This document shows, one piece after another, positions 1-60,700 of a DNA stretch of 64,000 nt (position 1 is the first letter of the stretch; each line of letters begins with the position of its first letter). The DNA comes from an uncultured Solirubrobacterales bacterium. GTDB taxonomy: Bacteria; Actinomycetota; Thermoleophilia; Solirubrobacterales; Solirubrobacteraceae. The stretch covers positions 2,805,600 through 2,869,599 of the forward strand of contig OY969921.1 in assembly GCA_963704555.1 (NCBI GenBank), written 5' to 3'. The notes beneath the pieces were generated by a model that saw nothing but the letters and a program-made list of their open reading frames with translations, was not told the origin of the DNA and searched no databases. The position numbers and the translations under genes were made by a program.

Positions 1-48
1 CCGGACGGTGCATGCACCGTCCGGGACATCGCCGCATGCGGCGATGTC
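1..48. repeat. two adjacent perfect 24-nt palindromes, each centred on CATG (CCGGACGGTGCATGCACCGTCCGG ; GACATCGCCGCATGCGGCGATGTC)
   Basis: Read directly; both are exact reverse-complement palindromes. They lie just 3' of the minus-strand gene ending at 64. Same design as the array at 38077-38216. Confidence 0.9.
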
Positions 49-63
49 TTCCTGATTATTTGG

Positions 64-10185: not shown

Positions 10186-10197
10186 GGTGAGCGAATC

Positions 10198-26684: not shown

Positions 26685-26844
26685 GAAACCCCTCCTCAGT
26701 TGAGAGTGAGCAAGTTCCTGTAGTCCTATCCGCGCGTCTTCCCAGCGAAGTTGCCGATCTGTGGAGATAGTGTGGCCATCTCGTAAACGCTGCCCTCAAA
26801 GACGCATAAGTTCCCCCTGCGTCGATACATGCACCCAAGGGCGC

Positions 26845-26858
26845 GGGCACATGTGCCC
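26845..26858. repeat. single perfect palindrome GGGCACATGTGCCC (CATG-centred)
   Basis: Read directly. Lies 3' of the minus-strand gene ending at 26890. Confidence 0.8.
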
Positions 26859-26889
26859 AAGCATGGTGAGACCTATCGTCGAAGCAAAC

Positions 26890-27903
26890 TCATTCCAGGA
26901 AGCGCACCACGTCTACGGCGTCGGCGTCGAGAGCGGCTGTCTGCTCGCGAGTCAAGCGACCGAAAGGCTCCAAGAGAACCTTTCCGGCGGGCATGCTCCA
27001 CGTCGCGACGGCGCGACCGCCAATCAGCGCGAAGGGACGGAAAAGGCCGTTGACCGTGATCACTTGCTGGTGTGAGCCGAGAATCGCCTCGCGCGAGCGC
27101 CAGCCGAGCAGTAGAGGGTCGAAGGCACCCAGCAGGCGCGGCCCGGGCAAAGCGGCCGGCGATGTTCCTGCGGAAAGATCGAGCAGACCGTCGTCGCGTG
27201 TTCTCAGGCGCGAGCCGATACGGCTCAGGCCCGCGCGGACGTCGCGTAGCGGGAGTCCGGACCACTTCGCCATGTCGCGCTCATCGGCTGGGGCGTGACC
27301 TAGTAGATAGCGACGGGCGAGTTCTGCCAAGGCAAGATCGCGATCGACCTGCTTGGTCTCGCCAAGCCAGTCGCGCACCAGCACGAACGCTTGTTGGCCG
27401 GCAATCATCGGTCCACGCACGATCAGGCCACGAATGGCGGCGAGCGCCAGCAGGTGAACCATCGCCTGGCCCTCCGTGGGGACGTCCGCGGCCGTGATCC
27501 GCTCGCGCAGCTGTCCGCGTGTGAGCGGGCCCCCGTCGGCCAACGAACGCTCGATCGTTCGCACGCCACGCTCGGCTAACCGATCTGACACACCCTCCTG
27601 AGCCAGCCTTCGCGCATTGGCCGTGAGCATGCGCGGTGCGGTCAGAGTCTGCAGCCACGGGTAGTCCTCGCTGCGGACCAGGTGCAGGGTGCCGCGGTTC
27701 AGCCAGGTGACGATGAGCGTGCGCTGCTCGCTCATGGCACGATCGACGTCAGCGGCCGTCGTGCCCACGGTTCGCGAACGGATCGCGAGGCGCAGCCCAC
27801 GCGGGTCTTGTCCCTGAACTGCGAGCAGCCGCTCGGCAACGGCGACCGCGTCGCTGGCCGGCTCTCCGGCTAGGAGCTGCGCTGTAAAACGTTCGGCGAG
27901 CAT
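26890..27903 (-). CDS. winged-helix DNA-binding protein (YcaQ/AlkZ-like family)
   Basis: ORF 26890-28080. Preferred start is ATG 27903 (MLAERFTAQLL). Family-typical N-terminus AVAVAERLLAVQGQDPRGLRLAIRSRT. Confidence 0.65.
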   Translation of the reverse strand: MLAERFTAQLLAGEPASDAVAVAERLLAVQGQDPRGLRLAIRSRTVGTTAADVDRAMSEQRTLIVTWLNRGTLHLVRSEDYPWLQTLTAPRMLTANARRLAQEGVSDRLAERGVRTIERSLADGGPLTRGQLRERITAADVPTEGQAMVHLLALAAIRGLIVRGPMIAGQQAFVLVRDWLGETKQVDRDLALAELARRYLLGHAPADERDMAKWSGLPLRDVRAGLSRIGSRLRTRDDGLLDLSAGTSPAALPGPRLLGAFDPLLLGWRSREAILGSHQQVITVNGLFRPFALIGGRAVATWSMPAGKVLLEPFGRLTREQTAALDADAVDVVRFLE

Positions 27904-28592
27904 CGACGCCAGTATGGCGCTGCCGAGTCGTCCTTTGGCCTCCAGCCGAACGGATTGGTCGTATCGTGAATTCCGTCGGCGTTGTTGGACACCGCATAGA
28001 AAACGGTGGAGCGTCCCGATACCGGCTCTACCGACAGACAGGCCTCGACAGCACTCAGGAGATCTCCATGACTCAGCCAAGTTGCGGTCTGTCCTGCTCC
28101 CGTCTTTACAGAGTTATCTCGCGTTACACCGCCAAACCGCACACCGACGAACTCAAAGCCGAACTGCTTTGAGAGGGCCTTGCCCACCTCCTCCTCGACG
28201 AGCTTGTAGACGCCGTAAGGCGTCGCGGGATGGTAACTGCCCGGTACGGCAAACGGCTCTACCGCAGCGGGGTCGCGGTGGTTATCGGCATGAACCGAGC
28301 TCGCCATGATGAGGCGTTTCACCTTGGCTTTCACCACCGCAGTAAAGACGTTGACGTCTATCCGCACATTCTCCGGATAGATGCGCATACGCCGGTCGTC
28401 GGGGTCTGCCGGTGAAAATCTGCGGGCAAGGTGAATGACCGTGTCAACTCCATGCATTTGCGCCCACAGGACCTCGTAATGGGATATGTCCTCAGGCAGA
28501 TCCACGCTCCTGATCCGGTACTTCCCATCTAGCCCACGCAGGAGCACCGAGCCGATGATCCCTTTGGAGCCGGTGATCAGGATCGTGCGCAT
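27870..28592 (-). CDS. NAD-dependent epimerase/dehydratase-family protein
   Basis: 240-aa ORF. Rossmann N-terminus MRTILITGSKGIIGSVLLRGL, and YxxxK within PYGVYKLVEE. Confidence 0.75.
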   Translation of the reverse strand: MRTILITGSKGIIGSVLLRGLDGKYRIRSVDLPEDISHYEVLWAQMHGVDTVIHLARRFSPADPDDRRMRIYPENVRIDVNVFTAVVKAKVKRLIMASSVHADNHRDPAAVEPFAVPGSYHPATPYGVYKLVEEEVGKALSKQFGFEFVGVRFGGVTRDNSVKTGAGQTATWLSHGDLLSAVEACLSVEPVSGRSTVFYAVSNNADGIHDTTNPFGWRPKDDSAAPYWRRCSPNVLQRSS

Positions 28593-36601: not shown

Positions 36602-37240
36602 GTGCACATCCAGCCCAAGTACGCGATGAGCTCGGTCGAGGCTCGGCGGGTCATCGCCGAGCATGGATGGGCGCGCGTGGTCTCAAGCGGAGCCGAAGGC
36701 CTGCGCGCAACGTATGGATTCTTCCTGCTCGAGGACGAAACGGGAGACGAGGTTGTCGTGGTCGGGCACTTTGCCCGCGCGGACCCACAATGCGCCGACA
36801 TCGAGGCGCGCACTCCAGTCCTGTTGATCTTCGAGGGGGGCCACGGATACGTCTCGGCGTCCTGGTATCGCCCGGAGCTGACGGACGTCCCGAGCACGAT
36901 GAACCATCTTTCCGTCCACATCCATGGGACGCCTCAGCCGCTCGACGGAGATGAGCAGTTCGAGGTCCTACGCCGAACGCTCGAGCACCACGAGGCGGTG
37001 CTCGGCGAGAGTCGATGGCGATTGGAGGGAGGAGGGCTCGAGCTGTCTCGCAGAATCGCCTCGCAAACTGTCGCCTTCAGGCTTCGCGCCGATCGCTTGG
37101 AAGCCAAGGCCAAGCTCTCCCAGGCAATGCCCCGCCCGGTACGCGAGCGGATCGTCGAGCGACTCGAGCAGCCGGGACCCCACCAACACCCTGAGCTGGC
37201 TTCGCTCATGCGCAGATTGTCATTGGGCAATCTGCCCTAG
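36602..37240 (+). CDS. FMN-binding negative transcriptional regulator (PaiB family)
   Basis: 212 aa. The N-terminus MHIQPKYAMSSVEARRVIAEHGWARVVS and overall length fit the PaiB family. Confidence 0.7.
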   Translation: MHIQPKYAMSSVEARRVIAEHGWARVVSSGAEGLRATYGFFLLEDETGDEVVVVGHFARADPQCADIEARTPVLLIFEGGHGYVSASWYRPELTDVPSTMNHLSVHIHGTPQPLDGDEQFEVLRRTLEHHEAVLGESRWRLEGGGLELSRRIASQTVAFRLRADRLEAKAKLSQAMPRPVRERIVERLEQPGPHQHPELASLMRRLSLGNLP

Positions 37241-38010
37241 CCGGCAACGGGCTGCATCACCGTGAATGCCGCTCCCTGGGGGTCGATCAGACCAGCGAAG
37301 CGTCCGATCGGCATGTCCATCGGCTCGTTTGTGACGGTTGCCCCGAGCTCGCGCGCCTTGGCTACGACGGCGTCGCAGTCGGCTACGGCGAAGACCACGC
37401 CCCAGTGCGGCGGGATCTCGGCCGGGAAATACTCGTCGCTCATCTGCATCATGCCTCCGACCTGTTTCCCTGCCAGCTCCCACACCGTGTACGTCTCCGG
37501 CGCGCCCTCGAACGCGGGGGGGCGGCCCTGCCAACCGAAGACTGCCGAGTAGAACGCCTTGCCGGCGTCGGCATCACGGGTGAGCACCTCGTTCCAGCAG
37601 AGCGAGCCCGGCTCGTTGACAAGGTCGGCGCCGGTGAAGCTCTTCGGCTGCCAGACGCCGAACACGGCGCCGGTGGGGTCGGCGAAGAGCGCCATCCGCC
37701 CGATGTCCATTACATCCATCGGCTCGAGCACGACGCTGCCGCCTGCAGACTTGACCTTGCCGGCCGTCTCCTCAGCATCGGCGACGCTTATATATGTGGC
37801 CCACGCGGTGGGCTGACCCTCCTGCATGTGGCCCATCAGGCCCGCGATGTTCTTGTCCTTCAGCTGGAACATGCGGTAGCCGCCGGTCTCGGCAGATCCC
37901 GGCTCTGTAGCGCTCCAGCCCATTAGCTCACCGTAGAAACGTGCGGAGGCGTCGGTGTCCGGCGAGGAAAGTTCGATCCAGGACGGGGTTCCAGGGGCAT
38001 AGTCGGGCAT
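37237..38010 (-). CDS. two-domain VOC (glyoxalase/bleomycin-resistance) family protein
   Basis: ORF to 38157. Preferred start is ATG 38010 (MPDYAPGTPSWIELSSPDTDASARFYGELMGWS). A second repeat follows (LCWNEVLTRDADAGKAFYSAVFGW). Confidence 0.8.
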   Translation of the reverse strand: MPDYAPGTPSWIELSSPDTDASARFYGELMGWSATEPGSAETGGYRMFQLKDKNIAGLMGHMQEGQPTAWATYISVADAEETAGKVKSAGGSVVLEPMDVMDIGRMALFADPTGAVFGVWQPKSFTGADLVNEPGSLCWNEVLTRDADAGKAFYSAVFGWQGRPPAFEGAPETYTVWELAGKQVGGMMQMSDEYFPAEIPPHWGVVFAVADCDAVVAKARELGATVTNEPMDMPIGRFAGLIDPQGAAFTVMQPVAG

Positions 38011-38076
38011 GAGGGCTCCTTTGCGGACGGGTACACCTTGATCGTGGCAGATCGACAGGTGAATTGCGATTGGGAC

Positions 38077-38216
38077 GGTCGGCGCATGCGCCGGCCGCGA
38101 CGGCGCACATGTGCGCCGTCGTCGGGGCGCGCATGCGCGCCCCGCGCAGGGCCGCATGCGGCCCTGCGTTCCGACCCGTACATGTACGGGTCGGCCCCCG
38201 GCACATGTGCCGGGGG
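38077..38216. repeat. array of six back-to-back perfect GC-rich palindromes, all centred on CATG
   Basis: 38080-38093 CGGCGCATGCGCCG; 38098-38121 CGACGGCGCACATGTGCGCCGTCG; 38123-38144 CGGGGCGCGCATGCGCGCCCCG; 38145-38168 CGCAGGGCCGCATGCGGCCCTGCG; 38171-38194 CCGACCCGTACATGTACGGGTCGG; 38195-38216 CCCCCGGCACATGTGCCGGGGG. Confidence 0.95.
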
Positions 38217-38258
38217 TCCATTATCAATCTCGCATCGATCTGGGCCCGCGGCCGACGA

Positions 38259-39236
38259 CTAAGGCGTGATGACGACGCGGCCGAACGCCTTGCGACTCTC
38301 GGCGTATTCGTGCGCAGCGGCGGCATCCGAGAGCGGGAACGAGCGATCGATCTCTACTTGTAGCTCGCCGCTTGCTACCCGCTCCAGCATGTCGCCGATC
38401 ATGGGATGGACGCGGGCGTACTCCGACAGGAGCGCGCCGCCGAGAAAGACGCCGTGCAGCGAGTTGTTGCGCGTCCACAGCGACCGCGCCTCGACTTGCG
38501 AGCCTGCACGAGCGGCCACACCCACGCTGACGAGCCGACCCCGGTAGGCGAGCACGTCGATGCTGTCGATGAGGTTCTGGCCGCCAATCGAGTCGAGAAC
38601 GACCTCCACACCGCGCGAAGCGGTCAGCTGGGTGGTGCGCTCCACGAAGCTTTCGGTCGCATAGTTGATCGGGTGGTCGAGTCCGAGCGCCTTCAGCCGC
38701 TCCAGCTTCTCCTCGCGGGAGGCCGTCGCGATCACGGTCGCGCCTGCGCGCTTGGCCAGTTGGATCGCGGCCATTCCCACGCCGCCGGCGCCGGCGTGGA
38801 CCAGCACGGTCTGGCCCGCGACGAGGTTGCCGGCGGTGAACAGACACTCGTATGCGGTTCCGAACGCAACCGGCACGCACGCGGCACGAGCCGCATCCAG
38901 CCCGGCGGGGATCGGCCAGGTCATCGCCGCGGGGACCGCTCGCCTGGCGGCGTGCGACCCTGCCGCGTTCAGGGCGACCACCCGATCGCCAACCGCGCGG
39001 TCCTCGACCCCGCCGCCAACCTCGCTGACGATGCCGGCGCTCAGATAGCCGACGGTATGTGGGGTCGCGTGCAGATCTCCTGCCGCGCGGGCAAGCAGAT
39101 CGCCGCCCTCGATGCTGATCGCCTCGGCGTCAACGATCACGCAGCCGTCCGGGCATTCCGGGTCGGACACATCCTCGTAGCGAAGCACCTCCGGCGTGCC
39201 GTTCTCGTAGATAACCGCTGCCTTCATTTGCGCCAT
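38259..39236 (-). CDS. NADPH:quinone oxidoreductase / zinc-type alcohol dehydrogenase superfamily protein
   Basis: 325 aa. MKAAVIYENGTPEVLRYEDV..., cofactor motif HAGAGGVGMAAIQLAK. Confidence 0.85.
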   Translation of the reverse strand: MAQMKAAVIYENGTPEVLRYEDVSDPECPDGCVIVDAEAISIEGGDLLARAAGDLHATPHTVGYLSAGIVSEVGGGVEDRAVGDRVVALNAAGSHAARRAVPAAMTWPIPAGLDAARAACVPVAFGTAYECLFTAGNLVAGQTVLVHAGAGGVGMAAIQLAKRAGATVIATASREEKLERLKALGLDHPINYATESFVERTTQLTASRGVEVVLDSIGGQNLIDSIDVLAYRGRLVSVGVAARAGSQVEARSLWTRNNSLHGVFLGGALLSEYARVHPMIGDMLERVASGELQVEIDRSFPLSDAAAAHEYAESRKAFGRVVITP

Positions 39237-39427
39237 CCTCTCGCTTTCGACGTCGCGCCGTCAGACCTCATGCTCGGGTCTCCAGCCACGCACGGTAGCG
39301 GTCCAGCGCACGTCGTTGCACACGCTGGTCGCATACCAGCGCGTATAGCGGGGGCGTCCTGCTTGGGGTGCCGAACCCCCAGCCCCCGACGGCTTCCCTG
39401 CCGGGGGGCGTTCGAAACTCGCGCGTG

Positions 39428-40399
39428 CTACAGCCAGTCGCGACGCCGGAAGCCTCGGTACAGACCACCTGACAGCACGATGATGAGGGCCGTCGAAAAC
39501 CAGAATCCCCAGTGAGCCGCGAAACCTGGGTAAGGCACATTCTGCCCGTAGAAGCCCGTGATTGCCGTAGGGACGGCAATGATCGCCGCCCAGCTCGTGA
39601 CCTTCTTCATCACGAGGTTCATCCGGTTGCCTTGGATCGTGAGGTTCGTCTCGAGGATAGTGCTCACTAGATCGCGCAGCGACTCCGTCCACTCGGTCGC
39701 GCGAAGCACATGGTCATACACGTCTTGGTAATAAGGAACCATTCCCTCGTCGAGTACGTGCAAGTCGCGACGCATTAGGGAGTTGACGACCTCGCGCATC
39801 GGCAGTACCACACGTCGGAGTAGAACTAGGCTCTTGCGAAACTCAAACGACCGGCGCTGAACCTCGGTGTCGCGTGGCGCCTCATCGAATAGAAGATCCT
39901 CCAGCGCCTCGATCTCGCTGTCAAGCGACTGCACCGCCTCGAAGTGCCCATCGACGATGTCGTCCAATAGACCCCAGAGCAGGAACGAGACACCGTACTG
40001 GGCAAGCTCCTTCGACGCGTCCCAGCGAGCCAGCAGTGAGTCGACCCGGGCGCCCTCCTCCATGCGGACCGTGACGAGTGCACGCGGCGTGATGAAAGCG
40101 CCGACTTCGTGCGTACACAACTCACCAGACTCAGTATCCAACTTCACGGCATAGGCACTCAAGAACAGATGCGTGTCATACCGGTCGAGCTTGGGACGTT
40201 GATGCGCGCTGATCGCATCCTCGACCGCCAACGGGTGCAGCTGCAACTCCTCGGCGATCGTCGCGAGCTCCGCCTCGGTTGGGTCGCAATAGTCCAACCA
40301 CACGCATGCGCCCTCGTCCTCAAGGTGCTCAGAGATGTCCTCGACCGGAAAATCCTCGAGCACCAGCTTGCCCTCGCGGTACAGTCGAGTGCGCGCCAC
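39428..40399 (-). CDS. corA: CorA-family divalent-cation transporter
   Basis: ORF to 40552. Preferred start is GTG 40399 (VARTRLYREGK). Two C-terminal TM helices flank FYGQNVPYPG, a GMN-type motif that reads GQN here. Confidence 0.8.
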   Translation of the reverse strand: MARTRLYREGKLVLEDFPVEDISEHLEDEGACVWLDYCDPTEAELATIAEELQLHPLAVEDAISAHQRPKLDRYDTHLFLSAYAVKLDTESGELCTHEVGAFITPRALVTVRMEEGARVDSLLARWDASKELAQYGVSFLLWGLLDDIVDGHFEAVQSLDSEIEALEDLLFDEAPRDTEVQRRSFEFRKSLVLLRRVVLPMREVVNSLMRRDLHVLDEGMVPYYQDVYDHVLRATEWTESLRDLVSTILETNLTIQGNRMNLVMKKVTSWAAIIAVPTAITGFYGQNVPYPGFAAHWGFWFSTALIIVLSGGLYRGFRRRDWL

Positions 40400-53661: not shown

Positions 53662-54774
53662 CTACGTACTCAAAGACAACCGGGATATAGCCCTCCCCCA
53701 CGGGATGCCCGTCTGCCAGCGTTCGGTGAGACTGACAAGCACCGCTGGCGTGACCCAGATCCAGGCGCCCAGTAGCGCGTACAAACTTGAGCTGTGCTGC
53801 GCTACCGACTGCATATTGCCTGCGAGCCTGCGCATGCCAAAGAACACCGGGATACCGAGCACGATCGCGATTGTCAGGATAAGGGTGCCCGCGACCGGGG
53901 GTACGGCGACGTGACCGAGCCACCACTGTGATAGCGGCAGCGCCGCCAGCATTTGCTTGGTAAAGGTCTCCAGCACGAGGTGTGAGTGCCAGCTGAGCGT
54001 GTACTCCGGGACCGGATGGGGGCTCCCGAAGATGTGCAGCGAAATGACGATCAGCAACGCGATTGCTACTGGGATCACGATCGCGAGCGCCGGGCGCCAG
54101 TCATGGCGACGGACGAGAACAATGAGGATCAGCACCGGGGCGAACAGTCCCACAACCTCGTAGCTGAAAAGCGCGAGTAGGTAGAGTGCGCCAGCGAGCA
54201 CCATCCAGCGTACGCCAGTCTTGACCAGCAACACCAGCAGGGAGCCGAACGTCAATGCCGTCGTCAACGCGATTATGCCGGCGAAGGAGTCGATGCCGTC
54301 GGACCACGGGCGCACCTGCAACGTGCCTGCCACGATCAGCACGAAAGCCACCCCTGGGATCCAGCTATCGGCAATCGTAACTATGCACAGCGCTACCGAT
54401 ACAAGCGCTAGCAGAAGCACCACGCCGACGATCAGCTTGTAGGAGTTACGATTATCGAATGCGTCGAACAACGTGTAGGTCCACCCCAAAAGCACTGGAT
54501 CAAAGCGCGCGTCGCGTTCGGCGAAGGCCGAGATTTGCGTCCATATATACGGTCCCAGTGAAGTGTGGGCTTCGCGCAGTGTGACGCGTAGGTTGCGATC
54601 GATGAGGTCGTCGTTGGCGTAAGGCGACTCCAACACCAGCGCGAAGTAAACGCCCAGTACCCATGTCACGATCGCCGCATGCATCGCCGTGAGCGGACGG
54701 CGCTCGGAGGAATGCGGCGTCTCTATCACAGTCGGAGGTGGCGCTGTATACGTTGAGGTAGCGATCAACGCCAT
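53662..54774 (-). CDS. polytopic integral membrane protein (about 10 TM)
   Basis: 370-aa ORF made almost entirely of hydrophobic helices. Visibly lower G+C than the first 50 kb. Overlaps the upstream gene by 10 nt. Confidence 0.7.
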   Translation of the reverse strand: MALIATSTYTAPPPTVIETPHSSERRPLTAMHAAIVTWVLGVYFALVLESPYANDDLIDRNLRVTLREAHTSLGPYIWTQISAFAERDARFDPVLLGWTYTLFDAFDNRNSYKLIVGVVLLLALVSVALCIVTIADSWIPGVAFVLIVAGTLQVRPWSDGIDSFAGIIALTTALTFGSLLVLLVKTGVRWMVLAGALYLLALFSYEVVGLFAPVLILIVLVRRHDWRPALAIVIPVAIALLIVISLHIFGSPHPVPEYTLSWHSHLVLETFTKQMLAALPLSQWWLGHVAVPPVAGTLILTIAIVLGIPVFFGMRRLAGNMQSVAQHSSSLYALLGAWIWVTPAVLVSLTERWQTGIPWGRAISRLSLST

Positions 54775-56531
54775 GTGTTAGGAACGGCATAGAGGAGCAC
54801 TCCGCCCAAACGGCTACCGTGTAGACCGATATTAGCAAGGTAGGTTGGCCACGGATCCTGTGCGGAGAGAATCACATCGGCGGTATCCACCACAATATGA
54901 CTGACGTGGTGCTGTTGGATGAAAGATACGAGCGATGACGCCGAAGGGGTTTCGTTCGAGAAGAGCTGAGCCGTAGTTGCTTCAGTTCTGAATGGCGGAG
55001 GCATCACCTGTCCCACATAACCCTCGGGCATGTAAAAGTAAAAGCCCGTCTCGGCCTGCCAGAGTGTAGATACGTCGTTAGCCCCGAACGGCAGTATCAG
55101 CACCGTCTCGCCTGGAGACAGATAGTGCCTATATGTGGCTGTAGAGAAAAAACGTGGGTTGTCCGGCGGCACCCCATAGAAAATTTTAGGGACGTTCGGA
55201 AAGAGCATAATTACAGCAAGTGCCACAACGAGCCAGCGCCCCGCTCGAACCAGCGAGCGCCCTGCGGGTCGTGCCACCCATGCAGCAATACCAATCGCGA
55301 CTGCAAGGCTGGTAAACACCGAAATACGCTCTGGGCTAATACTACTAAAAATCGGCAGATTCTTGAGCCAGTTAGCCGGTAGTGCAGCAGTGTCGTGCCC
55401 AGCGATGTGAAGATGAGCGCCCAGCGCCAATACAAAGCTCAATACTGCCACTATCAACACCAACTTGGTAAGCAAACGCTTTCGTTGAACGCTAACGCCC
55501 CAGGTCACAAAGGCGACTACTAGCGGAATACTCAAATACCCATCCTCGCCTGTCACCCCTCCGCCCGCATACTTGGCGCTAAGCGCATGAAACGCCTGGT
55601 GACCAAACCATGTGACTTCGGTCGGAAAGAATGGGTTAAGCAAATCCATCGCGTAGACATTCCAGAATTCGCCTATACTCTCCGGGCCGCCTCCGCTTAT
55701 CAAAGCGTAATAGAAAAAGGGCGCCCCTACTACCAATGCCAGCATACCTGCTGCGATCGTCTCCAGACTCAGCCTGTCCACCCCCGGACGTTGCCATTTC
55801 TGCACCAAAAAACGTGCTGATATCAGGAGCACCGCTCCGAACCCGACAGCCTCAGCGAGAATTTCGGTTGAGAGACCGGCCTGTAGGATGAACACTACCG
55901 CCATAAGCAAGACGTACTTGCGCGTTGACAATTCGTTATCCCAGCGCTTCAAGGCTAGGTGAACTATTACCGGAAGCAAAAAAATGAGTGTAAGGTTTAT
56001 GTGTCCGGTCAGCTGGGCGAAGTTATAGGCACTAAAGCCGTACAAAAAGCCGCCTATAACTGCGGGCAGCTCTCGCAGAACCAGGCGGCGACAAAGAAGG
56101 TATGCAGTAAACGCGCTCAGCACAGCACTAGCTAGACTCAAAAGGTTGTAAGAAACCACAGGACCGGCCAGCGCTGTGATAGGCGCCATCACAATTGCAG
56201 CCGTAGGGATCATCGCACCCTGAGCTACATTGACGCCGGTTGGCGACCATTGATAGTGGGTCACAAACGGATTAAGTCCGTGGATAATCGCGTGTGGCCA
56301 CCACGACAACGCCCACATATAGGCGGCTGGGTCTGAACTGCCGACACAAGCGCATACGCTGCCAGGATGGCTGAGCGCGTGACGGCCGATCGTGACAACG
56401 CCCAGAAACAAGTAGAAAGCTAGGGCAAGTATCCAGGTGGGCACAGTCCCATCTGCACGATTCGCTAGCTTCCTGAGCAGTCCTACTAGACGCGACAGGG
56501 TGGTCGATTGTGCCCGACGTTCAGTCGGCAT
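54765..56531 (-). CDS. large polytopic membrane protein, GT-C-like glycosyltransferase candidate
   Basis: 588-aa ORF with more than 10 TM helices followed by a ~130-aa soluble C-terminal domain. The first loop, SSDPAAYMWALSWWPHAIIHGLNPF, has an acidic residue as in GT-C enzymes. The family call is tentative. Confidence 0.6.
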   Translation of the reverse strand: MPTERRAQSTTLSRLVGLLRKLANRADGTVPTWILALAFYLFLGVVTIGRHALSHPGSVCACVGSSDPAAYMWALSWWPHAIIHGLNPFVTHYQWSPTGVNVAQGAMIPTAAIVMAPITALAGPVVSYNLLSLASAVLSAFTAYLLCRRLVLRELPAVIGGFLYGFSAYNFAQLTGHINLTLIFLLPVIVHLALKRWDNELSTRKYVLLMAVVFILQAGLSTEILAEAVGFGAVLLISARFLVQKWQRPGVDRLSLETIAAGMLALVVGAPFFYYALISGGGPESIGEFWNVYAMDLLNPFFPTEVTWFGHQAFHALSAKYAGGGVTGEDGYLSIPLVVAFVTWGVSVQRKRLLTKLVLIVAVLSFVLALGAHLHIAGHDTAALPANWLKNLPIFSSISPERISVFTSLAVAIGIAAWVARPAGRSLVRAGRWLVVALAVIMLFPNVPKIFYGVPPDNPRFFSTATYRHYLSPGETVLILPFGANDVSTLWQAETGFYFYMPEGYVGQVMPPPFRTEATTAQLFSNETPSASSLVSFIQQHHVSHIVVDTADVILSAQDPWPTYLANIGLHGSRLGGVLLYAVPNTWR

Positions 56532-56721
56532 CGCGCGCTCGGATCTTAAGATGGACGGATATGCTCACTGCCTCGCATTAGGAAGGACGGCAGTATAGTA
56601 GACGCGCCTCGCGCAAGCATCTCGCTGATTCGCGCCGGCCGACAATTGCCGGCGGGCCGGGGAGGTATCGCTCCCCGGCCGCCGTGACCACTTGTGCCCG
56701 TGACAACAATGGCCGCTTGCG

Positions 56722-57775
56722 CTAAAGCCAAAGCCCCGTCACGTCATCGAATTCTTTTACATATTCCCCTAGCTCTTCGTATGCTCCGTTGCCTTTGGAC
56801 AGAAACGTGTCAATATATCCACCAGGATACGTGTACATCAGATCGGTCTTACCGTCCCCGTTTACGTCGCCGGTGCGCCACCGACCCGAACTTGTGTCAA
56901 ATTCTTTTAGGTATTCTGAAGTCTCGGTGTACGTTCCATTGCCTTTAGACATGAACGTGTCGATGTATCCGACAGGGTAGATATACACGAGATCAGTCTT
57001 ACCGTCACCATTGAAATCCCCAGTCATCCACTGACCTGACGACGAGTCAAATTCTTTTAGATGTTCAGATACCTCTTCGTAGTGTCCGTTGCCTTTCGAT
57101 GAGAACGTATAGATGTACCCACCAGGATAAATGTATAGGAGATCAGACTTACCGTCACCATTGAAATCCCCTGTAAACCACTGACCCGACGATGAATCAA
57201 ATTCGGTTAGATGTTCTATTATCTCTTCGTAGTGTCCGTTGCCTTTCGAGAAGAACGTATCGATGTACCCGCCAGGATAAATGTATGCCAGATCAGTCTT
57301 ACCGTCACCGTTGAAATCTCCAGTAAGCCACTGGCCCGACGTTGAGTTGAATTCTGTCAGGTGTTCGATTGTCTCTTCATATAGGCCGTTGCCTTTGGAC
57401 ATAAATGTATCGATGTACCCACCAGGCAAAATATAGGCGAGATCAGCCTTACCATCGCCATTGAAATCCCCGACCTCCCATGTCCCATCCGTACTGTTGA
57501 ATCCCGCTTCAATCAGCTCCGACTTCTCTTCGTATGTGCCGTTGCCCTTTGACAGGAACGTATCGATGTACCCACCAGGGTAGATGTACACGAGATCAGT
57601 CTTACCGTCACCGTTAAAATCTCCTGTCATCCACAAACCTTGCGTCGATTCAAATTCTTTTAGGTGTTCTACCGTCTCGGTGTACGTCCCGTTGCCTTTC
57701 GACAGGAACGTATCGATGTACCCGCCAGGGTAAATGTACACGAGGTCGGTCTTACCGTCACCGTTGATGTCTGCC
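56722..57775. repeat. 153-bp tandem repeat x7 (FG-GAP blades) with high nucleotide identity
   Basis: The recurrent block GATCAGTCTTACCGTCACC(A/G)TTGAAATC... appears every ~153 bp. Confidence 0.85.
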
Positions 57776-59703
57776 CTTGTGGTGTTGAGTGGTGTCGTCG
57801 CGCGGGTGACTACATTTGACCCCAGACTTTCATTTTCCTCATTAGCGACGACTTCGTAGGAGTAAAATGTCGTCGGTTGCAGTTTGGTATCGACATAAGT
57901 CAACGCCGAAGTCGTCCCGACAGTTCCTCCGTTTCGCTTAATGGTGTAACTCGATGCGTTGGCCGACGCCGTCCATGTCAACGTCATACTGGACTGCAAT
58001 CGATTATTGATAGAGAGACTCGGAAGCGCCGCTGTCGTAAACGTCCGATCGTTCCCGTAGGAGGACACGCCAGCCGCGTTGGTTGCGACTATGCGGTAAT
58101 GGTAAGTCGTGCCCGCGCTCAGTTCACTGTGAGCTAGAACGCTGACTTCTACCTGGCCTGTACCCGATCCAGCATCGTTACCGGGCGGAGCCGGAGCGGT
58201 ACTTCCATAGGAGGTCGATGTGCCGTACTGGAAGTAGTAATGAGTGTCCGATGCATTTGGATTTACGGTACCGCTCAATGTAGCCCGATGGAACTGGATT
58301 TTGGACGCTTCCCCAGTAGCCGCCGATGGCGGCAAAGGCGCGTATTCAGTCCAGGCCTGTAGGTTTCCTTCGCTGGCGCCGAGCTCAATAAAGCCGCCAC
58401 CCTCGGTTCCATGCTCAATGCCGATTAGCGCATAGTTTGCGGGATTTGTGGAGTAGCCAGATTTGCAAGTGTTATTGATGCTGGTAATCGCACTTTCAAG
58501 GTTACCAGTTGTGATGCCTGCTATAAAATGCTTCCATCCCGTATTGGCCCCCGTAAATGTAAAAGTGTTCGCCGACCCGGCCTTCTCGGTCGCAAACACC
58601 GTGCCCAACGCAAACTGTGTGATCGTTTGGTCGGCTATGTGTCCATCCGCGGCGGCGCACGCCGATGTGACGTCAAAATGTTCTTCCGTACCAGGCTCAC
58701 CTTTCCCGGATCTCCACTCCTCCATACAAAACTCGAGGATGTTATCTGTCGCTGCATCCTCGAACAGCGGACAAAGATAGCCCCATGCGCCGAAGTGTGT
58801 TCCCGTTTTGTAGCTATACGGATTGGTTTCGGCCGAAACGATGAGGATTGGACTGCCGAAGGAGCTGCCCCAGGGCCGATCGTTCAATCCCTGTTCGCTA
58901 AGCGAGACATAGTGCTGCATCCCGCACGGGGCGCCGATGCCTGTGCATTCGCCGTCATTCGCGCCTCGTACCTCGTGGCCCCAAAATGTTTCGTTTGCTT
59001 GGCATACGGTCCTGTAGTAATTGGCCTCTTGGTAAGACGCCAATGGACTAGGCGGTTCGTAGCCGGTATATTCGCTCTCTTTGTTTGCGTCGGTGTAACC
59101 GAGGCCCTGACCTATCGTGTACGAGTTGCAATAGTCGCCGCTGTGGGTTAGTGCGACGTCTCCGTCGAGCGCGCCTTCGGCCAAATGGCTTGGAAGATAC
59201 GACGTGCCGACAGTGTCGCAGGCATAGGAGCTTTCTTTTGGCTCGCCGGCCTGCCAGCAGTTCTGGTGCGAGCTGAAGAGGCTGTACCAGTAGAGGTTTT
59301 CCTGTGAACCTGGTGTGAGGGGAGCCAGGTTCCCGGACTGGAGGCTAGCTCCACGCTCACCCGCGGACAAGGCTTGCTGCGCGGGACGAGCACCCGGTTC
59401 CGCCGCAAGCGGAGGAGGCACGTTCGTGGGAATCTCAGCCGCCGAGGCCTGACACCCGGGACCATCGGGCGTCATCGCAGGCGATACGGGCGTGCCCGTG
59501 CCCACCATGCAATCCGACTGAGCTACAGACGTCGTGTCCTGTGCCGAAGCTGCGGTGCTCGCCGCGGCAGCCGCAGGTGCAACACCCACCAACAGGACGG
59601 TGGACACTAGGGCGACAAGCGTCCTACGACGAGCCGCCAACCCTCTGTTCCTCGACCCGCGCCGGTCCATCCCCGATGCTACACCCAGTAGCCAACCTGA
59701 CAT
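56722..59703 (-). CDS. 993-aa secreted protein: unknown Cys-rich N-domain + two FN3-like modules + seven-blade FG-GAP/VCBS-type beta-propeller
   Basis: Signal segment RRRTLVALVSTVLLVGVAPAAAAAS. FN3-like ATLSGTVNPNASDTHYYFQYGTSTSYG and LTWTASANASSYTIKRNG. Seven 51-aa repeats of D(F/I/V)NGDGK(T/A/S)DL.YIYPGGYIDTF.SKGNG.Y. Confidence 0.85.
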   Translation of the reverse strand: MSGWLLGVASGMDRRGSRNRGLAARRRTLVALVSTVLLVGVAPAAAAASTAASAQDTTSVAQSDCMVGTGTPVSPAMTPDGPGCQASAAEIPTNVPPPLAAEPGARPAQQALSAGERGASLQSGNLAPLTPGSQENLYWYSLFSSHQNCWQAGEPKESSYACDTVGTSYLPSHLAEGALDGDVALTHSGDYCNSYTIGQGLGYTDANKESEYTGYEPPSPLASYQEANYYRTVCQANETFWGHEVRGANDGECTGIGAPCGMQHYVSLSEQGLNDRPWGSSFGSPILIVSAETNPYSYKTGTHFGAWGYLCPLFEDAATDNILEFCMEEWRSGKGEPGTEEHFDVTSACAAADGHIADQTITQFALGTVFATEKAGSANTFTFTGANTGWKHFIAGITTGNLESAITSINNTCKSGYSTNPANYALIGIEHGTEGGGFIELGASEGNLQAWTEYAPLPPSAATGEASKIQFHRATLSGTVNPNASDTHYYFQYGTSTSYGSTAPAPPGNDAGSGTGQVEVSVLAHSELSAGTTYHYRIVATNAAGVSSYGNDRTFTTAALPSLSINNRLQSSMTLTWTASANASSYTIKRNGGTVGTTSALTYVDTKLQPTTFYSYEVVANEENESLGSNVVTRATTPLNTTRADINGDGKTDLVYIYPGGYIDTFLSKGNGTYTETVEHLKEFESTQGLWMTGDFNGDGKTDLVYIYPGGYIDTFLSKGNGTYEEKSELIEAGFNSTDGTWEVGDFNGDGKADLAYILPGGYIDTFMSKGNGLYEETIEHLTEFNSTSGQWLTGDFNGDGKTDLAYIYPGGYIDTFFSKGNGHYEEIIEHLTEFDSSSGQWFTGDFNGDGKSDLLYIYPGGYIYTFSSKGNGHYEEVSEHLKEFDSSSGQWMTGDFNGDGKTDLVYIYPVGYIDTFMSKGNGTYTETSEYLKEFDTSSGRWRTGDVNGDGKTDLMYTYPGGYIDTFLSKGNGAYEELGEYVKEFDDVTGLWL

Positions 59704-59826
59704 CCCTGCCCCCTTTGTTCTCGTACATCGGACCTAGTTGGCTATGCAGAATGATCGAGACGAGGCGGGCTGTCTATACCTCAAAACGGGTGATCTTTGG
59801 GTAGCATTGAGGGATGACGACAGCGG

Positions 59827-60489
59827 TCAATACGAAGAGACTTGCTGTCTAGTGGACCTGATCTCGGTTCGTGTCGGGACCGGCATACCGACGAGTTCTC
59901 GCTTGCTTCGCACTCCGAGCTTGCGATAGATGCGTGCAGCGTGCTTTCGGGCGGTCTCAACGCCGATTTGCAGGGTGAGTGCGACTTCCGCGTGGGATTC
60001 GCCCCTGCTAAGGCACTCAAACACGTCCGTCTCGCGCGGCGTGAGGGAGGCAGTCTTGGCGGGATATCTTCGCTCAACTAGGCGACCGTCGCCAGGCGCA
60101 AATACCCGTCTGCCCTCCGCCGCGATATGAACGGCAGCGAGGATGTCGGCAGCAGAGGCATCCTTTGGCAGACAGCTGGCTCCGGCGGCAAGTAGCCGCA
60201 TACCGCATGCACGGGCTGGGCGATGTGCTAGCACGACTATCCCGATTGTCGGCTGAGACGCTCTCAGCCGCGACAGTACGGAGGGCTTGGCCACACTCTC
60301 CTCATCGAGTAGCGCTACCAGAGGAGTCCGCTGCGCGACAATCCCCTCGAGTGCCGCGCTGTCGAGGTCGCTACCAATGATCTGAAGATGGGGATCTTCA
60401 GACAAAATCTGCCTCAAGCCCCGGCCCAACAGGGCATCGAAGCGACCAAGCGCCACGGCTATGTACTTGTCGTCATCGCTAGATCGCAT
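59827..60489 (-). CDS. NarL/FixJ-type response regulator (LuxR-family HTH), atypical receiver
   Basis: Preferred start is ATG 60489 (MRSSDDDKYIAVALG). LuxR HTH LTPRETDVFECLSRGESHAEVALTLQIGVETARKHAARIYRKLGV. The receiver keeps LVALLDEES and K, but lacks the N-terminal acidic pair and the T/S residue. Confidence 0.75.
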   Translation of the reverse strand: MRSSDDDKYIAVALGRFDALLGRGLRQILSEDPHLQIIGSDLDSAALEGIVAQRTPLVALLDEESVAKPSVLSRLRASQPTIGIVVLAHRPARACGMRLLAAGASCLPKDASAADILAAVHIAAEGRRVFAPGDGRLVERRYPAKTASLTPRETDVFECLSRGESHAEVALTLQIGVETARKHAARIYRKLGVRSKRELVGMPVPTRTEIRSTRQQVSSY

Positions 60490-60700
60490 GTACACGATCG
60501 AACACGCGGAGATCTGACGCCGTGGCGCCCGTTCCTCCACGGGGGCCACACACGGCGGGGCACAGTCGCGCGGGGGGCACGTCATGCTCGGGCTTCGCAC
60601 GCATCAACACCGTCCTTGCTCCTTCCGTGGACTCAACCATGCGCCATCCTGACAGATTCCCTATTGAGGTATCGGTCAGGTCCATCGAGGGTGCCAGGCC

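Follow-up and report, generated by a model that had tools for sequence, protein, structure and literature searches.

A dispersed family of CATG-centred palindrome arrays at intergenic sites in uncultured soil Solirubrobacterales

Six abutting palindromes in the genome of an uncultured Solirubrobacterales bacterium are one copy of a lineage-specific, interspersed family of modular palindrome arrays carried by uncultured soil Solirubrobacterales (Thermoleophilia). The family is best read as previously undescribed, REP/BIME-like yet distinct, and its members represent, with about even odds, strand-symmetric hairpin arrays that are conserved at shared sites and act as intergenic punctuation. Interspersed palindromic repeats are well studied in Proteobacteria and essentially undescribed in Thermoleophilia, which are abundant, almost uncultured soil Actinomycetota, and a literature search found no description of CATG-centred or tandem palindromes in Actinobacteria or Solirubrobacterales.

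Six abutting palindromes centred on CATG

Positions 38076-38216 of the window (the whole 64,000-nucleotide stretch of contig OY969921.1 that was analysed) consist of six abutting palindromes, all of which share the centre RCATGY, as GCATGC or ACATGT (Table 1). Five of these units are perfect over 22-24 nt, while Pf carries a single T.G mismatch (t38079/g38094); the maximal perfect palindromes are therefore the five other units as tabulated and the 14-nt core of Pf (38080-38093), with gaps of 0-4 nt. The six consecutive CATG-centred palindromes reported in the preliminary description are thus present in the sequence as described, the 14-nt one being the core of Pf; relatives carry a perfect CCGGTCGGCA/CCGGTTGGCG unit at the Pf position. 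Pa, the unit nearest the minus-strand upstream gene and hence the first after it, is also found in L003, L020, L030, L048 and others, and the Pb core CCGTACATGTACGG is common to 69 arrays, with an outer stem that varies with compensation. Folding of the array gave -118.7 kcal/mol for RNA (z -8.7) and -76 kcal/mol for DNA (z -10), and the predicted fold comprises six separate hairpins.

Table 1. Arrays, units and neighbouring features in the window
Feature	Positions	Strand	Sequence or description
Unit Pa	38195-38216	.	CCCCCGGCA-CATG-TGCCGGGGG; 22 nt, perfect palindrome
Unit Pb	38171-38194	.	CCGACCCGTA-CATG-TACGGGTCGG; 24 nt, perfect palindrome
Unit Pc	38145-38168	.	CGCAGGGCCG-CATG-CGGCCCTGCG; 24 nt, perfect palindrome
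Unit Pd	38123-38144	.	CGGGGCGCG-CATG-CGCGCCCCG; 22 nt, perfect palindrome
Unit Pe	38098-38121	.	CGACGGCGCA-CATG-TGCGCCGTCG; 24 nt, perfect palindrome
Unit Pf	38076-38097	.	CGGTCGGCG-CATG-CGCCGGCCG; 22-nt quasi-palindrome, 91% complementary
Downstream gene	37237-38010	-	Two-domain glyoxalase/VOC-family protein (Pfam Glyoxalase and Glyoxalase_6)
Upstream gene	38259-39236	-	Zn-dependent dehydrogenase/quinone oxidoreductase (Pfam ADH_zinc_N and ADH_N)
Conserved stretch from array to glyoxalase-family gene	38040-38075	-	Minus strand ...gtcgatctgccacgatc
Second array of three units, two of them inside the window	1-48	.	CCGGACGGTG-CATG-..., GACATCGCCG-CATG-...
Short-family terminal motif	49-63	.	TTCCTGATTATTTGG, fits the family pattern TTCCYNGAWTA; then NlpC/P60 stop codon
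Possible decayed relic	26828-26865	.	14-nt palindrome GGGCA-CATG-TGCCC at 26845-26858

Short palindromes do arise in G+C-rich DNA, and 8.4 of at least 14 nt are expected per window. However, in 200 first-order Markov simulations of the window, perfect palindromes of at least 20 nt averaged 0.115 (maximum 2) against 8 observed, and CATG-centred palindromes of at least 14 nt averaged 0.445 (maximum 4) against 9 observed. The original tally of nine CATG centres out of nine was a selected count, the window-wide figure being 9/17 for palindromes of at least 14 nt, but the predominance of this centre stands among those of at least 20 nt (7/8). It also stands in 80 related GTDB loci (1 Mb) consisting of DNA not picked for CATG palindromes, where 65 of the 78 perfect palindromes of at least 20 nt are CATG-centred. 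In addition, different projects produced independent assemblies, long-read as well as Illumina, in which the same arrays are found at orthologous positions. The possibility that chance, base composition or an assembly artefact made the palindromes is refuted by the simulation, the related loci, the array anatomy and the covariation, and can be regarded as practically negligible.

A dispersed family with a uniform anatomy

The six units recur in identical order in related Solirubrobacterales MAGs and in soil metagenomes, a scan of which gave 57 further array loci. Within the 1.44 Mb covered by the family survey, 69 arrays fall into about 50 flank contexts, many of them unrelated sites; several single contigs carry two arrays each, and the window itself holds two arrays and a possible relic in 64 kb. 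The earlier view that the palindromes are not simple copies of one repeat has to be given up, since the whole array recurs with the same unit order in other genomes and at other sites.

Each array comprises 3-6 units over 72-146 bp, with a centre-to-centre spacing of 23-25 nt. The units abut with 0-3 nt between them and neighbours within one array are heterologous, on which grounds a CRISPR array, which would alternate an identical repeat with unique spacers of like length, was rejected. A unit is a 9-10-bp G+C-rich stem around CATG with the near-invariant core SSYRCATGYRSS, most often 24 nt long (n=228) and otherwise mainly 22 nt (n=67) or 26 nt (n=21). In the position logo, CATG is invariant, position -3 is R, -4 is Y, -5 and -6 are S, and the first two positions of the unit are C/G-C/G; pairing reaches 99-100% out to -11, 78% at -12 and only 12% at -13. 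The short arrays have conserved ends, GCTGTT/AACAGC on one side and GTC-TTCCYNGAWTA on the other, and array flanks read GAATACAT or TTCCYNGAA. Rfam gave 0 matches over the window at the gathering threshold (best sub-threshold score 23 bits against a 45-bit threshold), the viral contigs scanned for the Pb-Pc pattern gave 0 matches, and the sole match of the array in BLAST searches of phage and plasmid collections was at chance level, inside a coding gene of a plasmid.

Genomic context and placement

All arrays are intergenic, usually beginning a few to a few tens of nt past a stop codon (median ~27 nt; 17 of 67 within 9 nt), although their position near gene 3' ends is not clearly in excess of that of any tolerated intergenic insert. 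According to crude gene calls, 43 contexts are co-directional, 9 convergent and 6 apparently divergent. A fixed orientation to transcription was rejected, as independent short arrays divide 7:7; the 15:1 bias of the six-unit arrays arises because the glyoxalase-linked copies share ancestry. The sites in the window do lie 3' of minus-strand genes, as had been described, at distances of 42 nt (main array), 15 nt (1-48) and 32 nt (the 14-mer at 26845-26858).

In the main array, Pa lies 42 nt from the stop codon of the Zn-dehydrogenase gene and Pf 65 nt from the start codon of the glyoxalase-family gene; this gene accompanies the array in at least 12 related loci. The conserved stretch between Pf and this gene is probably its promoter or 5' region and not part of the repeat; the sequence still precedes the gene even in L008, L011 and L023, whose palindromes have decayed or disappeared. 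A promoter and terminator consensus scan gave no match, and 37000-39500 contains no terminator-like site. The array has no U-tract after its hairpins, which bears out the statement that these sites are not classic intrinsic terminators, and an intrinsic (Rho-independent) terminator was rejected on this ground. A Pfam scan was made of 16 window proteins (the array neighbours and those of a low-GC island at 54-60 kb) among roughly 52 window genes. The island encodes an FG-GAP/dockerin protein, a LuxR regulator and ORFs without a Pfam match, and contains neither a restriction-modification system nor a transposase.

The two units at the window edge (1-24 and 25-48) are both perfect 24-mers centred on CATG. 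In relatives, the full array reads GGAA-GACATCGCCG..-CCGGACGGTG..-CCGGGCGCG..-AAC and lies between an NlpC/P60 gene and a Na+/H+ antiporter-DsbA gene; in the window it ends 15 nt past the stop codon of the NlpC/P60 gene (64-1134, minus strand), and its terminal motif TTCCYNGAWTA follows a GACnnnGCCG unit at more than 10 independent sites. The array is kept in relatives down to 76% protein identity, with CCGGACGGTG, CCGGGCGGTG, CCGGACCGTA or CCGGGCCGCA as its second unit, all versions being perfect. Nine NlpC/P60 homologues were fetched, of which seven have the full array, one a truncated copy and one a different downstream gene; none of the nine represents an empty site, and exact-protein look-ups with three window proteins gave no match. 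Because no empty site was recovered, mobility of the arrays is inferred from their dispersal only.

The 14-mer at 26845-26858 lies 32 nt past the stop codon of an AlkZ-like gene (26890-28080, minus strand) and upstream of a phosphodiesterase-family gene, a position at which L004 has a full array and L010 a decayed one. Over 9-bp arms the 14-mer has 2 mismatches, and a second CATG occurs 22 nt away with unpaired arms. The region is possibly a decayed array relic, or a product of chance, given that 0.45 such palindromes are expected per window.

Exact symmetry, covariation and conservation

Of the 4742 CATG sites in 1.44 Mb, 320 are flanked by 9-bp arms that pair perfectly; arms with a single mismatch occur at 12 sites and arms with two at 18, after which the counts merge into random background. 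Among single-mismatch units, G.T (n=5) is not commoner than A.C (n=3), and G.U pairs make up ~0.2-0.3% of all pairs. Across 20 six-unit arrays, 98.4% of cells are paired against 29-50% in slid controls, double changes occur in 24 of 59 pairs, and 68 double-change cells stand against ~7 one-sided ones, values reached by none of 500 shuffles. C-G to G-C swaps are common in the stems; the outer stem is free to drift, with both arms changing together such that Watson-Crick pairing and exact symmetry are kept. Identity between orthologous arrays is 0.90, compared with an overall 0.875 for the adjacent gene and 0.67 for its four-fold sites, and arrays persist at specific sites across species whose neighbouring genes are synonymous-saturated. 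The compensatory covariation, the sharp class of perfect units and a conservation far above that of neutral sites uphold the original proposal that a hairpin or cruciform, always tipped by CATG, is under constraint.

Decayed arrays occur in L010 (8353-8466), L003 (5796-5878), L008 and L023, so that array maintenance is not automatic. Truncated units at rearrangement junctions stop within ~2 nt of the centre (L088, L003 near 5870, L143, L008, L011 and L023), which, judged from the sequence, would suggest DNA-level fragility at the unit centre. Genome-specific unit variants are common to several sites (L085, L095/L118, L117 and L125), and the high conservation could in part stem from gene conversion between copies instead of selection on the individual sites; homogenisation of inverted-repeat arms by template-switching is documented (PMC7202029, PMC8604942). 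Taken together, the breakage of truncated units at the centre and the variants shared between sites in a genome point to a putative CATG-specific enzyme. The arrays may be substrates of an enzyme both structure- and CATG-specific that copies whole arrays to new intergenic sites, a reading that we consider rather unlikely. Candidates could be a recombinase, a nuclease acting on the tips of hairpins or cruciforms, or a transposase not related to RAYT. Cutting or joining would occur at the dyad centre, and symmetric action of the enzyme could enforce perfect palindromy. Clustering of all predicted proteins revealed no partner gene recurring within 4 kb of the arrays beyond orthologous housekeeping neighbours, and no binding protein, nuclease or transposase was identified for them among array neighbours in the 1.44 Mb.

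A purely RNA-level element, in which a hairpin stack in the 3'-UTR serves as a U-tract-less terminator, an exonuclease block or a CAUG-tetraloop protein platform or sponge, would suit the proximity of the arrays to stop codons, the extreme stability of the predicted RNA and the combination of an invariant loop with variable stems. A cassette needed in both insertion orientations could also select for Watson-Crick-only stems and a self-complementary loop. However, G.U pairs are nearly missing and not commoner than A.C, an RNA transcribed from a single strand has no need of a self-complementary loop, the genes on either side of most arrays are co-directional, and the arrays lack both a U-tract and an Rfam family. 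Mycobacterial RNA polymerase reportedly requires a U-tract, which also counts against this explanation. The pure RNA "CAUG loop" envisaged at the outset fits poorly with the near-absent G.U pairs and the self-complementary loop, and an element of this kind is a tentative possibility, on the unlikely side. On the best reading, the constraint acts on the DNA itself or on both strands alike.

All centres fit RCATGY, which we take to be an NspI-type site, and six such sites lie in 140 bp, as might be expected if a restriction-modification system or orphan methyltransferase specific for CATG or RCATGY had its targets clustered here. However, CATG is neither avoided nor enriched in the window (observed/expected 1.02), only 320 of the 4742 CATG sites sit in units, and an enzyme reading the duplex leaves the fixed-length, covarying 10-bp arms superfluous and unexplained. 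Methylase and nuclease domains are absent among the 16 scanned proteins. A methylase or restriction target, also raised in the preliminary description, is thus highly improbable.

Proposed working of the arrays

In the favoured reading as intergenic punctuation, a unit would work as a short hairpin with a set length and CATG at its tip. Both strands would give the same hairpin, whether in extruded DNA, in single-stranded DNA or, where transcribed, in RNA of either direction, and a unit would therefore be orientation-independent. A putative factor may read or nucleate the CATG tip while measuring a stem of ~10 bp, the outer stem needing only to pair. Exact symmetry would be kept jointly by selection on tip and pairing and by replication template-switching, which is known to render quasi-palindromes perfect. 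As punctuation between genes, the stacked, very stable hairpins may stop or protect transcript ends, or the arrays may provide a DNA structural or protein-loading site, as proposed for REP/BIME. Whole arrays would be spread and homogenised by recombination or by a putative mobilising enzyme. Simultaneous cruciform extrusion by abutting units is sterically doubtful.

The family is unusually clean: its units are exactly dyad-symmetric, with stems of fixed length and a CATG tip that never varies, and it comprises hundreds of natural compensatory variants and same-site arrays kept over long divergence. As a natural experiment, it could show whether bacterial genomes retain perfect palindromes through selection, template-switch correction or both, and it gives a handle towards a protein that reads a DNA or RNA hairpin tip; in these MAGs it may also serve as a practical marker of rearrangement junctions and gene boundaries. 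Should the strand-symmetric reading hold, the arrays would represent an orientation-independent intergenic punctuation module, and if instead a CATG-specific enzyme spreads them, a new class of prokaryotic mobile palindrome.

Comparison with known systems

The closest counterparts are the REP/BIME elements of Gammaproteobacteria, including the SMAG repeats of Stenotrophomonas, with which the arrays share short, G+C-rich, extragenic palindromic units, often at gene 3' ends, composite clusters with tens to hundreds of dispersed copies, and a lack of inverted terminal repeats and target-site duplications. Compensatory changes that preserve palindromy are also known in REPs (PMC2817692), and roles in transcript ends, mRNA stability and DNA topology have been proposed for REP/BIME (PMC2817692, PMC3733652). 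These likenesses favour a non-autonomous element of REP/BIME or IS200/IS605 type that an HUH Y1 transposase (RAYT/TnpA) encoded elsewhere in the genome would mobilise on single-stranded DNA, and the short-family end motifs GCTGTT/AACAGC and GTC-TTCCYNGAWTA recall the fixed flank or end sequences of IS200/IS605. However, REPs carry a GT(A/G)G or CGTC head and are imperfectly palindromic, their middle being non-complementary (PMC2817692, PMC3733652), whereas here 320 units pair perfectly through the centre and only 12 have a single mismatch, no bulge or asymmetry marks a strand, and neither tag appears in the logo. BIMEs alternate copies of one or two REP types, whereas the arrays combine three to six heterologous units in a fixed order. 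Their spacing is regular (23-25 nt), and the orientation of perfectly palindromic units is undefinable. REPs are tied to a RAYT gene, and RAYTs were found only in Gammaproteobacteria in the survey of PMC2817692; the host here belongs to Thermoleophilia, and no RAYT was seen in the 1.44 Mb. With approximate IS608 TnpA and E. coli RAYT queries, the best tblastn match in 1.44 Mb had only E = 0.035, no transposase-like neighbour recurs, and the two sites studied in depth are ancient and stable. The REP-type Y1 transposase system suggested initially therefore lacks its characteristic head, its imperfect palindromes and, with these approximate queries, a Y1 match in 1.44 Mb, and mobilisation of this kind appears quite unlikely.

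A MITE, defined by terminal inverted repeats and a target-site duplication, was rejected: when the 60-nt flanks on the two sides of an array were compared, neither inverted nor direct matches were longer than in mismatched flank pairs. A by-eye likeness between the two flanks of the window array was dropped, as it was absent from the repeat search. Haloarchaeal palindrome-associated elements exemplify non-autonomous elements derived from IS200/IS605, which share with the arrays a richness in hairpins, conserved short end sequences and the lack of inverted terminal repeats and target duplications. Such elements have asymmetric subterminal hairpins and, on their left flank, a fixed tetra- or pentanucleotide, and they match the ends of an identifiable IS. 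The hairpins here are symmetric, and no IS or TnpA/TnpB was found for the arrays by tblastn with the approximate queries in 1.44 Mb or among neighbours within 4 kb.

Intrinsic terminators, including the U-tract-less "I-shaped" hairpins described in Actinobacteria, likewise place a stable G+C-rich hairpin soon after a stop codon, and the I-shaped type and the arrays alike have no U-tract. Terminators are single, idiosyncratic hairpins with arbitrary loops and tolerated G.U pairs, whereas the arrays belong to a dispersed family in which 3-6 units stand in tandem, stems have a fixed length and the palindromic loop is invariant. The mitochondrial G+C-rich palindromic clusters, namely the "PstI palindromes" of Neurospora and the GC clusters of yeast, are also dispersed, mobile-looking and intergenic with a fixed, restriction-site-like core, but they belong to organellar genomes, have other cores and do not form tandem heterologous 24-bp units. 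In works-like terms only, the arrays resemble CsrB/RsmZ, protein-titrating hairpin arrays with GGA loops, in presenting many hairpins with one conserved loop motif on variable stems. An algal case of organellar G+C-rich palindromes is also on record (PMC4524435). CsrB and RsmZ are dedicated sRNA genes with asymmetric loops and wobble pairs, whereas the arrays described here are strand-symmetric intergenic DNA repeats.

CATG-centred palindromes in the window and their genomic setting

The main array (window 38076-38216) comprises six abutting palindromes, all centred on GCATGC or ACATGT (Table). The preliminary description counted six perfect palindromes; five are perfect, while Pf is a quasi-palindrome with a single mismatch, and the 14-mer first seen there is its perfect core (38080-38093). 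The reported "9 of 9" CATG centres was a selected count, as CATG occupies the centre of 9 of 17 palindromes of at least 14 nt window-wide, but the enrichment is genuine: seven of the eight perfect palindromes of at least 20 nt are CATG-centred. Across 200 Markov simulations, the mean was 0.115 for perfect palindromes of at least 20 nt (8 observed) and 0.445 for CATG-centred ones of at least 14 nt (9 observed). The observation as a whole is confirmed.

Two minus-strand genes, separated by a 248-bp spacer, flank the array. In the GTDB genome set, every relative of the dehydrogenase comes from an uncultured Solirubrobacterales/Solirubrobacteraceae MAG, mostly supplied by the Microflora Danica project, the closest having 93% protein identity; a search of the assembly collection for exact matches to three window proteins returned none. 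The glyoxalase-family gene keeps the array attached (window 38013-38258 versus L002, L003, L010, L014, L021, L030, L037, L122, and L134). In the same set, the sequences on the distal (Pa) side belong to six or more unrelated classes, and the downstream flank of the gene is also variable among compared loci, so that the array forms the boundary of a segment prone to rearrangement.

Other features were noted in the window. A low-GC island (54000-60000; 52-58% G+C versus about 64% elsewhere) looks horizontally acquired and is unrelated to the palindromes. Two neighbouring, very large plus-strand ORFs (5545-13815; 1546 and 1205 aa) have coding-like GC3 and no Pfam family at E <= 0.001. A conventional-looking bidirectional terminator hairpin (1244-1285; 17-bp perfect stem, 8-nt loop GCGCGCGT, bordered by AA and TT) between ECF sigma factor and NlpC/P60 genes shows that ordinary hairpins, with loops other than CATG, are in use in this genome as well.

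Table. Features in the window and in comparison loci (L-numbers) from related MAGs or metagenomes
Feature	Location	Strand	Detail
Quasi-palindrome Pf	window 38076-38097		22 nt, one T.G mismatch
Perfect palindrome Pe	window 38098-38121		24 nt
Perfect palindrome Pd	window 38123-38144		22 nt
Perfect palindrome Pc	window 38145-38168		24 nt
Perfect palindrome Pb	window 38171-38194		24 nt
Perfect palindrome Pa	window 38195-38216		22 nt
Two perfect palindromes	window 1-24 and 25-48		24 nt each, CATG centre
Palindrome	window 26845-26858		14 nt
Two-domain glyoxalase/VOC-family gene	window 37237-38010	minus	start 65 nt beyond main-array end
Zn-dependent dehydrogenase gene	window 38259-39236	minus	main array begins 42 nt past its stop
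Two ORFs	window 53662-54774 and 54765-56531	minus	low-GC island; no Pfam match
FG-GAP/dockerin/fn3 protein	window 56722-59703	minus	low-GC island; 993 aa
LuxR-type regulator	window 59827-60600	minus	low-GC island
Half-unit	L088 near 1847
Half-unit	L003 5860-5880 (near 5870)
Half-unit	L143 2230-2260
Two half-units	L008 7480-7540
Half-unit	L011 5080-5110
Half-unit	L023 7090-7110
Mutated centre	L119 near 580		CAAG
Mutated centre	L114 near 2190; L136 near 725		CACG
Mutated centre	L095/L118 left end		CGTG
Mutated centre	L081 near 3015		CTCG

A dispersed, composite repeat family

In 80 related GTDB loci (1 Mb), which like the window were not selected for palindromes, CATG is the centre of 65 of the 78 perfect palindromes of at least 20 nt, and the CATG palindromes form runs of five to six, repeating about every 24 nt. 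Related loci repeat the six window units in unchanged order, with arms Pa CCCCCGGCA, Pb CCGACCCGTA, Pc CGCAGGGCCG, Pd CGGGGCGCG, Pe CGACGGCGCA, and Pf CCGGTYGGCR; each arm precedes CATG and its own mirror image. The seemingly unrelated arms therefore belong to a copied composite element of ~145 bp rather than to six independent inventions, and the initial argument against copies of a repeat does not hold. Scanning metagenomes for the Pb-Pc core added 57 loci from soil and peat, which are thus ascertained by pattern; the core had no match in a viral scan, and phage and plasmid collections contained nothing meaningful matching the array. Perfect palindromes with arms of at least 8 nt number 328 for the CATG centre across the window and all 137 loci (1.44 Mb), and at most 30 for any other centre.

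An unusual Pb variant (core GTGCCGTA...TACGGCAC) is common to arrays at different genomic sites, as CTGTGCCGTA in L085, L095, and L118 and as CCGTGCCGTA in L117 and L125 (L117 and L118 lie on one contig), while at the site of L085 in other genomes (L020, L048, L088, L126, and L137) Pb is GGGCCGTA. This sharing is a hint of concerted evolution, or of recent copying, in a lineage.

Anatomy of units and arrays

Units have a sharply defined length, mostly 24 nt (n=228), with 22-nt (n=67) and 26-nt (n=21) forms, and follow one another at a centre-to-centre spacing of 23-25 nt in arrays of three to six; solitary units are rare. The consensus in the position logo is S S Y R C A T G Y R S S, with the outermost 5-6 positions in either arm unconstrained. 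Arm pairing is 99-100% to position -11, 78% at -12, and 12% at -13; the last value is below the roughly 30% predicted from composition, indicating a stem capped at a defined length. Array make-up is modular. The short family has three units (Px-Pb-Pc-like), bounded by GCTGTT (other strand AACAGC) on one side and ending in a GACnnnGCCG unit followed by TTCCYNGAWTA on the other; in the six-unit family these are joined by Pd, Pe, and Pf, and further arrays gain or exchange units. In addition, many six-unit arrays (L030, L104/L121, L107, and L125) carry a small hairpin with a non-CATG loop, CCCC(C)-TGAC-GGGG(G), just before Pa, which is missing from the window copy. In L085 (1956-2010), a different hairpin (14-bp stem CCGATCTTCGGCCG, loop GAG) replaces the left arm of Pd, the rest of the array being normal.

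Window 1-48 covers the inner two-thirds of a three-unit, short-family array. Among nine contigs with homologues of the adjoining NlpC/P60 gene, seven, reaching down to 76% NlpC/P60 protein identity, contain the complete array between NlpC/P60 and Na+/H+ antiporter-DsbA genes; L143 has a truncated copy, L146 has no array and a different downstream gene, and none of the nine presents an empty site. The middle unit is CCGGACGGTG in the window and four loci, CCGGGCGGTG in L141, CCGGACCGTA in L144, and CCGGGCCGCA in L145, with the opposite arm an exact mirror in every variant.

Constraint on pairing, strand symmetry, and the CATG tip

Six independent hairpins are predicted for the main array, with folding energies of -118.7 kcal/mol for RNA (z -8.7) and -76 kcal/mol for DNA (z -10). 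When 20 aligned six-unit arrays were scored against this structure, 98.4% of cells were paired and 24 of 59 pairs showed two-sided changes, with 68 double-change cells versus about 7 one-sided changes. No shuffle out of 500 came up to any of the values observed, and sliding the partner by 1-3 columns reduced pairing to 29-50% and covarying pairs to 0-3, bearing out the structural inference first drawn from the window. Mismatches in 9-bp arms at all 4742 CATG sites of the 1.44 Mb are bimodal (320 sites with zero, 12 with one, 18 with two), the remainder being random background with its peak at 6-7. Upstream of the glyoxalase-family gene, orthologous arrays have a mean identity of 0.90, versus 0.875 for the whole coding sequence of that gene and 0.67 at its four-fold degenerate sites, indicating that arrays are either constrained like coding DNA or kept uniform by inter-copy exchange. 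Decayed arrays occur (L010 8353-8466, L003 5796-5878, L008, L011, and L023), so perfection is not automatic.

Wobble pairs are almost missing, G.T being no more frequent than A.C in single-mismatch units (n=5 and n=3), with one-sided changes a tenth of double changes; C-G to G-C swaps are frequent and lack a wobble intermediate; the CATG loop is self-complementary; and independent short arrays are oriented 7 versus 7 relative to transcription. These four observations point to a constraint symmetric between strands. A structure selected in a single transcript alone would tolerate G.U and need no palindromic loop. This leaves a hairpin or cruciform that matters in DNA, or an RNA hairpin that must work in both insertion orientations. 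Template-switching in replication, which perfects quasi-palindromes and homogenises inverted-repeat arms (PMC7202029, PMC8604942), would explain the joint change of both arms. Alone, it would leave the centre and inner stem as free to drift as the outer stem; both are invariant, which implies that the tip is under selection. Units that keep a 10-bp stem around a mutated centre are rare (about 2%) and have the appearance of CATG-tip loss. Pyrimidines and purines alternate along the conserved 8-mer YRCATGYR.

Array position and junctions

By crude gene calls, 43 arrays have co-directional, 9 convergent, and 6 apparently divergent neighbours; the nearest stop codon lies a median of about 27 nt away, and within 9 nt in 17 of 67 arrays. 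This position fits a transcript-end role, is near the expectation for any tolerated intergenic insert, and alone is no proof of function. The main array contains no U-tract or terminator-like site, in agreement with the earlier view that the palindromes are not classic intrinsic terminators. In six cases, half-units at rearrangement or deletion junctions terminate no more than about 2 nt from the dyad centre, keeping one arm, with or without CATG, before unrelated DNA. These ends suggest breakage at the hairpin tip, in a small sample whose recognition is biased.

Comparison with known systems

The palindrome arrays are neither CRISPR arrays nor MITEs and match no Rfam family; inverted terminal repeats or target-site duplications above control, as expected of MITEs, were not detected. 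The suggested restriction-modification link is unsupported, as CATG observed/expected is 1.02 in the window and the window proteins scanned include no restriction-modification genes. No description of such arrays was found in the literature searched.

The evidence best supports a lineage-specific form of interspersed palindromic repeats that is new, in which strand-symmetric hairpin units, each with a fixed ~10-bp stem and a selected CATG tip, make up modular arrays conserved at intergenic sites across long divergence. Beyond the observed family, anatomy, covariation, conservation, and strand symmetry, we infer that a factor may read the hairpin tip, that template-switching may help to keep the symmetry, and that arrays may act as orientation-independent punctuation between genes; their mode of spread belongs to this inferred part.

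Like REP/BIME elements, the family consists of extragenic, clustered, G+C-rich palindromes maintained by compensatory change (PMC2817692, PMC3733652), and has neither inverted terminal repeats nor target duplications. However, the GT(A/G)G or CGTC head that defines REPs is missing, the palindromes are perfect whereas those of REPs are imperfect, and the units are heterologous whereas BIMEs are alternating copies (PMC2817692, PMC3733652). The proposed involvement of a RAYT, the Y1 transposase tied to REPs, lacks support from head and palindrome type; none was seen in the 1.44 Mb searched, which is weak evidence, drawn from separate loci rather than from a complete genome. The family acts like REP/BIME elements, yet departs from their defining features.
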